This document shows, one piece after another, positions 13,570 through 60,857 of a stretch of DNA of 64,000 nucleotides; the first letter of the stretch is position 1, and each line of letters opens with the position of its first letter. Source of the DNA: Escherichia coli. GTDB lineage: Bacteria > Pseudomonadota > Gammaproteobacteria > Enterobacterales > Enterobacteriaceae. The notes beneath the pieces were generated by a model. That model was given only the letters and a program-made list of their open reading frames with translations. It was not told the DNA's origin and made no database searches. Position numbers and translations under genes: made by a program. The DNA is taken from the NCBI RefSeq assembly GCF_044324875.1, contig NZ_CP172185.1. One strand, written 5' to 3'.

Positions 13570-14523
13570 GTGGATAGTAATAATCAAATTGAAACCTGTT
13601 TAAGCAGAAAGTCGTCAGAAGGTAAACCACAAATATTTACAACCTTACGAAATATTGATCTTAACCTTCTGACTATTTTTGAAGCTGTATATGTACATAA
13701 AGGGATCGTTAATGCAGCGAAAGTGCTTAATCTGACACCCTCGGCAATCAGTCAGTCTATTCAGAAACTGCGCGTTATATTCCCTGACCCATTGTTTATT
13801 CGCAAAGGCCAGGGCGTCACTCCTACCGCATTTGCGATGCATCTACATGAGTATATCAGTCAGGGCCTTGAGTCCATTCTTGGCGCGCTGGATATCGAAG
13901 GAAGCTATGATAAGCAACGAACGATAACTATTGCGACCACCCCCTCGGTCGGAGCCCTGGTCCTTCCTGTCATCTATCGGGCGATTAAATCTCACTATCC
14001 GCAGCTTTTACTGCGCAACCCGCCCATCAGCGACGCGGAAAACCAACTCAGTCAGTTTCAAACCGATCTCATCATCGATAACATGTTTTGCACCAATCGT
14101 ACGGTGCAACATCATGTTCTGTTCACCGACAATATGGTGTTAATTTGCCGTGAGGGAAATCCACTACTCTCTTTAGAAGATGACAGGGAGACTATCGACA
14201 ACGCTGCGCATATACTCCTGTTACCGGAAGGGCAAAATTTCAGCGGTCTGCGGCAGAGAGTTCAAGAGATGTTTCCGGACCGGCAAATCAGTTTCACCAG
14301 CTACAACATTTTGACAATCGCTGCACTGGTTGCCAACAGTGACATGTTAGCGATTATTCCCAGCCGTTTTTATAACCTGTTTAGCCGTTGCTGGCCGCTG
14401 GAAAAACTGCCTTTTCCGTCCTTAAATGAGGAGCAAATAGATTTCTCTATCCACTACAACAAATTCAGCCTGCGTGATCCCATCCTGCACGGGGTAATAG
14501 ATGTTATCCGTAATGCATTTTGA
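13570..14523 (+). CDS. ybeF: LysR-family transcriptional regulator YbeF
   Basis: 317 aa, GTG start; N-terminal HTH (LNLTPSAISQSIQKLR); AT-rich coding sequence. Confidence 0.8.
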   Translation: MDSNNQIETCLSRKSSEGKPQIFTTLRNIDLNLLTIFEAVYVHKGIVNAAKVLNLTPSAISQSIQKLRVIFPDPLFIRKGQGVTPTAFAMHLHEYISQGLESILGALDIEGSYDKQRTITIATTPSVGALVLPVIYRAIKSHYPQLLLRNPPISDAENQLSQFQTDLIIDNMFCTNRTVQHHVLFTDNMVLICREGNPLLSLEDDRETIDNAAHILLLPEGQNFSGLRQRVQEMFPDRQISFTSYNILTIAALVANSDMLAIIPSRFYNLFSRCWPLEKLPFPSLNEEQIDFSIHYNKFSLRDPILHGVIDVIRNAF

Positions 14524-16129: not shown

Positions 16130-16924
16130 TCATAATAATTGCGGCGGCGCAAAGCGACGGTTGTTTAAAACGGGAAGTTGCGCGCGCACCTGACGCACAC
16201 GTTCGGGCGTCACTTCCGCCATAATGAGTGCAGGCATTTCTGACGCTGCCGCAATGGTGACGCCAAAGGGATCTATAATCCGGCTTTGCCCGATATTTTT
16301 GTTCCCGCACTCCCCCGCCGCCACCATATAACAGGTGGTATCCAGCGCACGAGCGGCAAGCAACGTTGACCAGTGATGCTCCTTGAGCGGCCCACGAACC
16401 CAGGCGGCAGGAAGTACCAGGATTTCAGCTCCCTGTAATGCCTGTGCCAGCGCCAGCTCTGGAAAGCGTAAGTCATAACAGGTCATCAGACCGACCTTCA
16501 TCCCTTCCACCTCCAGTAACGGAGCTATTTCATTACCAGCATCAACATGGCGTGATTCCTGAATGGCAAATGCATCATAGAGATGCAGTTTGGCATAACG
16601 GGCGACGATGTTTCCTGCCTGTAGCGCCACCAGCATATTCCATGCGCGCCCCGGTGTTGAAGGAACATGAATCGTCAGAATTGTCGTCATCATGTTACGT
16701 TTACTTTCTCGACGTAAACGTCCGAGGAATTCGCCTTCCAGCAGCTGTGCTGATTTAACCGATAGATCTGCATCATGATCATCACGCGCCAACAATGCTT
16801 CCGGCAGGACAAACAGCGAAACGTCGTTTTCCGCCGCCTGCGCCATCAACGAGGCACAAATCTCAGCGTTCTTTTCCCACACAGATGTAACAGCAAACTG
16901 TCCTGCGGCAACCAGCATTGCCAC
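16130..16924 (-). CDS. ybeM: nitrilase-superfamily C-N hydrolase YbeM (Nit1-like amidase), intact
   Basis: 264-aa uninterrupted ORF with Glu/Lys/Cys catalytic-triad contexts ([23 protein letters not shown]). Confidence 0.8.
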
Positions 16925-41390: not shown

Positions 41391-41428
41391 TGCCGGATGC
41401 GGCGTGAACGCCTTATCCGGCCTACAAA
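41391..41428. repeat. REP (repetitive extragenic palindromic) element
   Basis: TGCCGGATGCGGCGTGAACGCCTTATCCGGCCTAC, canonical E. coli REP; the same sequence recurs at 63137. Confidence 0.75.
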
Positions 41429-41450
41429 TGCTATCAACGCGCTCGGTCAG

Positions 41451-41496
41451 TCCCCTCGCCCCATCGGGGAGAGGGTTAGGGTGAGAGGGAACCCTC
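41451..41496. repeat. G/C-rich palindromic intergenic repeat adjacent to REP
   Basis: CCCCTCGCCCC-ATC-GGGGAGAGGG followed by GAGGG-AA-CCCTC; imperfect palindromes typical of BIME-associated units. Confidence 0.4.
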
Positions 41497-41539
41497 GGCA
41501 CTATGCCAACATTCGCCAACATCCCCCCTCACTCTGACT

Positions 41540-47478: not shown

Positions 47479-48654
<1,176 letters not shown>

Positions 48655-48667
48655 ATCATCCTCCACA

Positions 48668-48705
48668 AAATGATAAAGGCTTTAATAATGATTATCATTT
48701 ATATT
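48668..48705. promoter_or_regulatory. Fur box in the divergent entC/fepB control region
   Basis: AATAATGATTATCATT closely matches the Fur consensus GATAATGATAATCATTATC. Confidence 0.75.
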
Positions 48706-48842
48706 TTCGGTCGCTAACCTAAAAGCAAACGCGCACTATGTCAACTCTTGAGGTAACGCAATCTGCAACTCGGGGTTGCATCTGCTTGTGGTTACAATGA
48801 AAATGAGAAGCATTAACTTCATTAATAACAGGAAGCTGATTT

Positions 48843-49799
48843 GTGAGACTCGCCCCGCTCTACCGCAACGCCCTTCTATTAACAGGACTTTTGCTTTCAG
48901 GAATAGCCGCAGTTCAGGCCGCCGACTGGCCGCGTCAGATTACTGACAGCCGTGGCACTCATACCCTGGAAAGCCAGCCGCAGCGTATTGTTTCCACAAG
49001 CGTCACCCTGACCGGCTCACTGCTGGCGATTGATGCTCCGGTGATTGCCAGCGGCGCGACCACGCCAAATAACCGCGTCGCGGATGACCAGGGCTTTTTA
49101 CGCCAGTGGAGCAAGGTAGCGAAAGAACGCAAATTGCAACGACTCTATATCGGTGAACCAAGTGCCGAAGCAGTTGCCGCGCAAATGCCGGATCTGATTT
49201 TAATTAGCGCAACCGGCGGTGATTCGGCGCTGGCGCTGTACGATCAGCTTTCCACCATCGCCCCGACATTAATCATCAATTACGACGACAAAAGCTGGCA
49301 GTCGCTGTTAACGCAACTTGGCGAAATTACCGGGCATGAGAAACAAGCGGCAGAGCGGATTGCGCAGTTTGATAAGCAACTGGCGGCGGCGAAAGAGCAA
49401 ATCAAATTACCGCCGCAGCCGGTCACTGCCATTGTCTATACCGCCGCTGCACACAGTGCCAATCTCTGGACGCCTGAATCAGCACAAGGGCAGATGCTGG
49501 AACAACTCGGCTTTACGCTGGCGAAGTTGCCCGCAGGGTTAAACGCCAGCCAAAGCCAGGGCAAACGCCATGACATCATTCAGCTTGGTGGGGAAAATCT
49601 GGCTGCAGGGTTAAATGGTGAGTCACTATTCCTGTTCGCCGGTGATCAGAAAGACGCCGATGCTATTTATGCTAATCCGCTGCTCGCGCACCTGCCTGCA
49701 GTACAAAACAAGCAGGTTTATGCGCTGGGAACCGAGACGTTCCGACTGGATTACTACAGCGCCATGCAAGTGCTGGAACGACTTAAGGCGCTGTTTTAA
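48843..49799 (+). CDS. fepB: ferrienterobactin periplasmic binding protein
   Basis: 318 aa, GTG start; signal peptide; long structured leader upstream. Confidence 0.9.
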
Positions 49800-51053: not shown

Positions 51054-51126
51054 TACAATGCCTTGCCATCAAATATTTTAAATACCTATTCTTAGGCTGC
51101 ACATGCTAACATATCCAAATAAGATC

Positions 51127-51153
51127 GATAACGATAATTAATTTAATTATCAT
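51127..51153. promoter_or_regulatory. Fur box in the divergent entS/fepD control region
   Basis: GATAACGATAATTAATTTAATTATCAT, iron-box-like dyad between divergent starts. Confidence 0.6.
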
Positions 51154-51163
51154 GGAAGTTCGT

Positions 51164-52168
51164 ATGTCTGGTTCTATTGCCGTGACACGCGCCATTGCCG
51201 TGCCCGGATTGCTGTTATTACTGATTATCGCGACGGCATTAAGCCTGCTCATTGGGGCAAAATCACTCCCCGCTTCCGTAGTGCTGGAGGCCCTCTCCGG
51301 CACCTGCCAGAGCGCCGACTGCACCATCGTGCTCGACGCGCGACTGCCGCGCACCCTTGCCGGTTTACTGGCAGGCGGTGCGCTTGGCCTTGCCGGGGCG
51401 TTGATGCAAACCCTCACCCGAAACCCACTTGCCGACCCCGGCTTGCTTGGCGTGAACGCCGGAGCCAGCTTTGCCATTGTGCTGGGTGCGGCGCTGTTTG
51501 GTTACTCATCCGCGCAGGAACAACTGGCGATGGCCTTCGCCGGGGCGCTGGTGGCCTCATTGATTGTTGCCTTTACCGGCAGCCAGGGCGGCGGGCAGTT
51601 AAGTCCGGTGCGTTTAACCCTGGCGGGCGTGGCGCTGGCGGCGGTGCTGGAAGGGCTGACCAGCGGCATCGCCCTGCTTAATCCTGACGTCTACGATCAG
51701 TTGCGTTTCTGGCAAGCCGGTTCGCTGGATATTCGTAATCTATATACCTTAAAAGTTGTGCTGATCCCGGTGCTGATCGCCGGAGCAACCGCGCTATTAC
51801 TGAGCCGCGCGCTGAACAGTTTAAGCCTCGGCAGTGACACCGCGACGGCGCTAGGCAGTCGCGTGGCGCGCACACAGTTGATTGGTCTGCTGGCGATTAC
51901 CGTGCTTTGCGGTAGTGCAACGGCGGTAGTTGGCCCGATTGCCTTTATTGGCCTGATGATGCCGCATATGGCGCGTTGGCTGGTAGGTGCCGATCATCGC
52001 TGGTCGCTGCCCGTCACGCTACTTGCTACCCCTGCCCTGCTGCTGTTTGCCGATATCATCGGGCGTGTGATTGTGCCCGGCGAACTGCGCGTTTCTGTAG
52101 TCAGTGCCTTTATTGGCGCACCGGTGCTGATCTTCCTCGTGCGACGTAAAACGCGAGGTGGCGCATGA
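51164..52168 (+). CDS. fepD: ferrienterobactin ABC transporter permease FepD
   Basis: ORF 51152..52168; start set at the ATG preceded by GGAAG (334 aa); the upstream ATG at 51152 lies inside the Fur box; FecCD-family permease. Confidence 0.85.
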   Translation: MSGSIAVTRAIAVPGLLLLLIIATALSLLIGAKSLPASVVLEALSGTCQSADCTIVLDARLPRTLAGLLAGGALGLAGALMQTLTRNPLADPGLLGVNAGASFAIVLGAALFGYSSAQEQLAMAFAGALVASLIVAFTGSQGGGQLSPVRLTLAGVALAAVLEGLTSGIALLNPDVYDQLRFWQAGSLDIRNLYTLKVVLIPVLIAGATALLLSRALNSLSLGSDTATALGSRVARTQLIGLLAITVLCGSATAVVGPIAFIGLMMPHMARWLVGADHRWSLPVTLLATPALLLFADIIGRVIVPGELRVSVVSAFIGAPVLIFLVRRKTRGGA

Positions 52169-60615: not shown

Positions 60616-60666
60616 ACCATAACCCCATGTTTACTGTGCAATTTTTCATTGATTGCAGAAATATAT

Positions 60667-60701
60667 TGATAATATTATTGATAACTATTTGCATTTGCAA
60701 T
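60667..60701. promoter_or_regulatory. Fur box(es) in the divergent fes/fepA control region
   Basis: GATAATATTATTGATAACTATTTGCATTTGCAAT, overlapping iron-box hexamer repeats. Confidence 0.65.
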
Positions 60702-60857
60702 AGCGTAATGGCGCGCCGTGGGAAGCGCGGACATTAATTAACCAACTGCACTGCGTGTCTTTCAGGATCAAAGGTTTTCGCGGTAGCGGGATGCGTCGTG
60801 TTGATGACGACCATGCCCGACAGTTGCAATTCGTGGCAAAAATGCAGGAATAAAACA

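Follow-up and report, generated by a model that had tools for sequence, protein, structure and literature searches.

What does the 188-bp gap between the divergent genes entC and fepB (48655-48842) hold: a near-consensus Fur box and a structured leader, as the initial annotation had it, or another set of control elements? The gap belongs to a stretch of Escherichia coli DNA of 64,000 nucleotides, hereafter the window, which corresponds to the ent/fep cluster in an orientation reversed relative to that of K-12. The flanking genes are entC and fepB; a 901-bp query spanning the gap had matches of at least 95% identity in 5417 among 5426 complete E. coli genomes, in each case with these two annotations. 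On the sequence evidence set out below, we consider it highly probable (about 95%) that the gap consists of two back-to-back sigma-70 promoters, each with a Fur operator of its own, with RyhB providing an additional layer of control on fepB. The entC/fepB gap as a classical back-to-back promoter region under Fur is already known, and has been for long; it is an ordinary one. The coordinates of the elements are collected in Table 1.

Table 1. Control elements of the entC-fepB gap and other Fur-matrix matches in the window (rank, order by matrix score in the window; identity, mean over the 57 aligned species)
Feature	Position	Strand	Remarks
Fur-matrix match GATAGTAATAATCAAATTG	13573-13591		rank 5, 13.9 bits
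entC (EntC) ORF	ATG at 48654	-	
entC Fur operator (entCEBAH promoter)	48660-48708	-	equivalent of the 49-bp K-12 footprint, 49/49 identical to K-12 624831-624879; from about the inferred +1 to the Shine-Dalgarno sequence
Fur-matrix match	48678-48696		rank 4, 14.8 bits; overlaps the entC box at a 6-bp offset
entC core 19-bp Fur box ATAAATGATAATCATTATT	48684-48702	-	rank 3, 17.8 bits; 15/19 to consensus
Inferred entC -10, TAGGTT	48716-48721	-	identity 0.96
Inferred entC -35, TTGACA	48739-48744	-	invariant in 57/57 species; 17 bp from TAGGTT
Palindrome TGCAAC-tcggg-GTTGCA	48764-48780		between the promoters; only clean hairpin in the gap
Inferred fepB -35, TTGCAT	48776-48781	+	identity 0.99
fepB footprint-equivalent stretch	48793-48823	+	spans the -10 and inferred +1; 31 bp in K-12, the first 23 (48793-48815) identical here
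Inferred fepB -10, GAAAAT	48799-48804	+	invariant; 17 bp from TTGCAT; first six bases of the fepB Fur box
fepB core 19-bp Fur box GAAAATGAGAAGCATTAAC	48799-48817	+	rank 1, 19.0 bits, best match in 64 kb; 15/19 to consensus
Empty target site TTA	48813-48815		from alignment to K-12
RyhB pairing site	48823-48847	+	over Shine-Dalgarno AGGA (48830-48833) and the GTG start
fepB (FepB) ORF	GTG at 48843	+	
entS/fepDGC divergent-promoter Fur operator	51114-51182		footprint equivalent, 67/69 identical
entS/fepD-region core Fur box	51127-51145		rank 2, 18.1 bits
Consensus match	51133-51151		15/19
fes/fepA divergent-promoter Fur operator	60660-60707		footprint equivalent, 48/48 identical
fes/fepA best 19-mer	60674-60692		rank 6, 12.7 bits

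Fur sites were scored with a symmetric matrix built from 13 K-12 sites (fur, gpmA, tonB, sufA, cir, mntH, bfd, ryhB, sodA, fecA, fecI and two at fhuF) with coordinates according to PMC2189734. These training sites, all of which lie outside the ent cluster, were chosen in order to avoid circularity, and they scored 6.8-22.5 bits when each was left out in turn. In the window, three sites reached at least 17 bits, compared to 0.08 expected from 200 dinucleotide shuffles, and the best matches fall within the three ent/fep control regions. Moreover, a plain scan against the 19-bp consensus GATAATGATAATCATTATC, covering both strands of the 64 kb (~128,000 positions), returned 15/19 matches at three places only, one at entC, one at fepB and one in the entS/fepD region. 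The match ranked fifth by the matrix falls at the beginning of an ORF of 317 aa (13570-14523) whose N-terminus resembles a LysR-type regulator. It may be noise, given that chance alone should produce about 0.5 matches of at least 14 bits in the window.

DNase I footprints of K-12 Fur sites, including those at entC, fepB, fepA-fes and fepD-entS, are listed in Table 3 of PMC2189734. These footprint coordinates were shifted by +777 to NC_000913.3 and then aligned to the window. The value of +777 is what we take to be the offset between the K-12 genome versions, its sole support being that the resulting sequences contain the boxes. The stretches equivalent to the entC, fepA-fes and fepD-entS footprints proved identical or nearly identical to their K-12 counterparts.

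The initial annotation had ascribed the whole cluster to classical Fur control, which it considered expected and not novel, on the basis of a box at 48683..48701 and iron boxes at 51127 and 60667, and it had named a matrix scan and a comparison with published footprints as checks. Both bear it out. The sites at 48684, 51127 and ~60667 score 17.8, 18.1 and 12.7 bits, rather than all three falling below threshold, and the Fur boxes are therefore real. The box at 51127 lies inside the fepD-entS footprint-equivalent stretch, while position 60667 falls in a cluster of matches at 60662 (6.8 bits), 60674 (12.7 bits) and 60680 (6.8 bits), within the stretch equivalent to the fepA-fes footprint. The entC box is equally genuine, although its stated position deviates from the best 19-mer by one to two bases. 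Overall, the coincidence of the best matrix matches with footprint-equivalent DNA is what classical Fur control would lead one to expect.

It should be noted that the longest fepD ORF starts with the ATG at 51152, immediately after the 15/19 match of that region. The K-12 annotation places the fepD start at another ATG, 12 bp further on (51164 in window coordinates), and the footprint-equivalent stretch covers the gene start either way.

At entC, the 16-mer AATAATGATTATCATT sits at 48684-48699, and the operator as a whole contains overlapping matches phased by 6 bp, at 48666 (5.4 bits), 48678 (14.8 bits), 48684 (17.8 bits) and 48690 (8.3 bits). The phasing follows the same pattern as the multi-dimer clusters of overlapping Fur sites in 6-bp register described in PMC2189734. 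An AT-rich palindrome of this kind might also be a chance match, or simply a pair of promoter hexamers with no repressor site, given that Fur boxes resemble -10/-35 hexamers and that a generic promoter/terminator scan placed all of its three promoter-like matches within the entC box, calling ATGATA-17-TATCAT on both strands. We regard this explanation as practically untenable. When the 188-bp gap alone is shuffled, 0.05% of trials yield a site as good as 17.8 bits; across 57 species the box hardly varies, in contrast to the drifting spacers next to it; and its sequence is identical to K-12 DNA that has been footprinted.

The same generic scan found no terminators in the region and left the conserved hexamers uncalled, since TAGGTT has only 3/6 matches. 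The promoters were thus assigned from conservation and from the literature. With this assignment, the entC box is flanked by the conserved -10 of that gene on one side and by its ribosome-binding site on the other. Transcription of entC would start at about 48708, which is also the upstream limit of the entC footprint, and that of fepB at about 48811, in the centre of the fepB footprint. Brickman et al. reportedly placed the two starts 103 bp apart in 1990, and the distance between the starts proposed here agrees with that value.

A second operator, at 48799-48817, scores slightly higher than the entC box and was absent from the initial annotation, which is incomplete, as each promoter has a separate operator and only one of the two was listed. 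The arrangement has been described in PMC5020551, which reports two non-overlapping Fur boxes: box 1, which covers the fepB -10/-35 and corresponds to the second operator, and box 2, the entC Fur box, which is downstream of the +1, -10 and -35 of entC. In the same study, the cloned K-12 region drives iron-controlled expression in both directions. In the present strain, the equivalent of the fepB footprint ends in 8 bp that differ from K-12, because the K-12 version of these positions lies in an insertion found only in K-12 in this comparison.

We then considered the conservation of the gap among Enterobacteriaceae. A search recovered FepB relatives from 80 species, and the gap measures 187-188 bp in 49 of them; 57 gaps were aligned. 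The conserved blocks of this alignment are, for each gene, the Fur box, the -35/-10 pair and the ribosome-binding site, with mean identities of 0.93 for the entC Fur box, 0.96 for the fepB Fur box and 0.99 for the fepB ribosome-binding site, while the spacers are only 0.41-0.55 identical.

Insertions of various lengths interrupt the gap in several lineages. Klebsiella grimontii carries ~124 bp between the promoters, Salmonella enterica subsp. arizonae ~120 bp within the entC operator/leader and Intestinirhabdus alba ~156 bp in the entC leader, whereas six Kluyvera and three Pseudocitrobacter loci have 45-60 extra bp between the promoters. These insertions are independent of one another, and the core Fur boxes are kept in all cases. 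The insertions of K. grimontii and S. enterica subsp. arizonae may be ERIC-like, judging from their appearance.

In most Enterobacteriaceae, a TGTGCGAC block is found just upstream of the fepB -35, conserved at ~80% per column versus ~45% in the nearby spacer. Escherichia has drifted from TGTGCGAC to CTGCAAC (window 48763-48770), which gives rise to the perfect palindrome seen here. This block could be a site for another regulator. Its moderate conservation in most species, together with the footprints of both RcsAB and Fur reported upstream of entC for Klebsiella pneumoniae NTUH-K2044 (PMC7298118), raises the question of whether a second regulator such as RcsAB also acts through the entC operator, so that control would not be purely by Fur. 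We consider such sharing unlikely in this strain: at the alignment positions concerned, the E. coli sequence is not that of the Klebsiella type. A second regulator would, in any case, add to Fur control and not replace it.

Moreover, the fepB start region carries a site for the small RNA RyhB. RyhB represses fepB translation by pairing with positions -20 to +5, as demonstrated by compensatory mutations (PMC4666370). These 25 positions are all identical (25/25) between K-12 and the window. The duplex predicted between the core regions of RyhB and fepB has an energy of -19.3 kcal/mol, which is equalled by 0.3% of shuffled targets. The ryhB gene itself is located outside the window.

Taken together, these elements suggest the following mechanism, in which Fur occupancy in the present strain is what we infer from the conserved sites. 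When iron is present, Fe2+-Fur dimers would bind the 48660-48708 stretch in 6-bp register. Since this stretch runs from about the entC start to the ribosome-binding site, bound Fur would be expected to block the initiation or early elongation of entCEBAH. On the other side, Fur bound to the stretch of about 48793-48823, which includes the fepB -10 and the start of transcription, would keep RNA polymerase off fepB. When iron becomes scarce, Fur would be released and both units transcribed. The resulting fepB mRNA would have a short unstructured leader of ~31 nt in this strain, and its ribosome-binding site would pair with RyhB, itself repressed by Fur, which would add translational repression.

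The short fepB leader distinguishes this strain from K-12, in which the gap is 374 bp long versus 188 bp here. The difference consists of one 186-bp block, which comes directly after GCATTA, near position +5 of the fepB mRNA, with TTA bordering it on each flank (16531-16716 of the K-12 locus). The block contains two exact inverted copies of the motif CCCTCNCCC-N3-6-GGGNGAGGG-N3-GGGNGAGGG, which is the BoxC/PIT/TMECO intrastrand-triplex repeat motif defined in PMC4666352, where such loci are reported to be unstable. With the insertion, the K-12 fepB leader reaches ~217 nt and folds into a long hairpin (-98.1 kcal/mol, z = -3.74).

The BoxC element is absent from the 188-bp gap, and the only copy of the motif in the window is located at 41453-41485. 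The surrounding stretch (41424-41536) belongs to the same GC-rich repeat family, sharing 78% identity with the insert of the K-12 fepB leader over 116 bp; it is intergenic, about 7 kb away from the gap. A REP-like palindrome is found just upstream of this repeat, at ~41395-41430.

The initial annotation had also assigned a structured leader to the gap, which would imply a riboswitch, an attenuator or a stabilising hairpin acting post-transcriptionally on entC or fepB. The strongly structured K-12 leader, the perfect 6-bp palindrome and the folding of the whole gap, slightly better than that of its shuffles (z = -1.65; 11 of 200 shuffles as good), could all be cited for it. We nevertheless find it very improbable, as the evidence collected here already largely refutes it. 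The structure of the K-12 leader arises from an insertion that this strain lacks. As for the leaders themselves, that of fepB (~31 nt, as inferred), folded together with the early coding sequence, is no more stable than its shuffles (-6.5 kcal/mol, z = +0.72), and no consensus pairs were detected across 17 species. The inferred entC leader (~54 nt) gave -14.5 kcal/mol with z = -1.04, and the consensus energy across 19 species was only -2.8 kcal/mol, with compensatory change in 0 of 13 pairs. The pairs predicted for the entC leader are simply the inverted half-sites of the Fur box.

With respect to both proposed starts the palindrome is situated upstream, and the invariant fepB -35 overlaps its 3' arm. 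Only 4 of 57 species retain the full set of six pairs. Whether it was considered as an RNA or as a DNA structure, it showed no informative compensatory change across the 57 species, which is explained by the 3' arm being the invariant -35 itself. Finally, an Rfam search of 48500-49000 with E values up to 10 returned chance-level matches only, none below E = 1, the best of them reaching 18 bits where the gathering score is 90. The idea of a structured leader was probably a K-12 feature transferred to a sequence that does not carry it. The reading that we retain is that of two promoters with one Fur operator each, and with RyhB acting on fepB.

Given that K-12 and the present strain differ at this position, we evaluated the distribution of the two states. 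The insertion allele is found in 2721 of 5426 complete E. coli genomes (~50%), and the empty-site allele in at least 2332 (at least 43%), including UTI89 and an O157:H7 strain. The empty state also occurs in E. albertii, in two other Escherichia lineages and in most other genera, while E. whittamii carries a 100-bp version at the same position of the fepB leader. Since the empty state prevails in the other Escherichia and in most genera, the window represents the ancestral arrangement and the K-12 allele the derived one. The presence or absence of the K-12 element from strain to strain fits the instability reported for BoxC/TMECO loci (PMC4666352). In a limited literature search, we found no description of a two-allele fepB leader, nor of the insertion as a repeat or MITE.

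The fepB leader thus exists in two forms in E. coli. We tentatively raise the possibility that the alleles might differ in the strength of Fur repression, in mRNA stability or in the access of RyhB, and hence in the level of FepB, because the footprint, reporter and RyhB data that we could trace were all obtained with K-12, which carries the insertion allele. This bears on the use of K-12 regulatory knowledge for the present strain: the long structured fepB leader belongs to the insertion allele and is absent here, while the strain keeps the two Fur operators and the site for RyhB. As a discovery the locus has little value; as a textbook Fur region, it can be used as a positive control of the scan.

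Compared to the fepB-entC region of K-12, which goes back to Brickman, Ozenberger and McIntosh (1990) and is covered in PMC2189734 and PMC5020551, the genes and their relative orientation are the same. No difference is seen in the entC operator, in either -35/-10 pair, in the core fepB box, at the two ribosome-binding sites or at the RyhB site, and a single substitution separates the two sequences between the entC ATG and the insertion point. In K-12 the element supplies the 8 bp at the distal end of the fepB footprint, whereas the present window has the empty site. Within the cluster, fes-fepA, entS-fepDGC and fepB-entC are alike in having divergent promoters with clustered, 6-bp-phased Fur boxes, and all three are intact in the window. 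They differ in the number of operators: at fes-fepA and entS-fepDGC one operator cluster is common to both promoters, while fepB-entC has two operators ~100 bp apart, one for each promoter.
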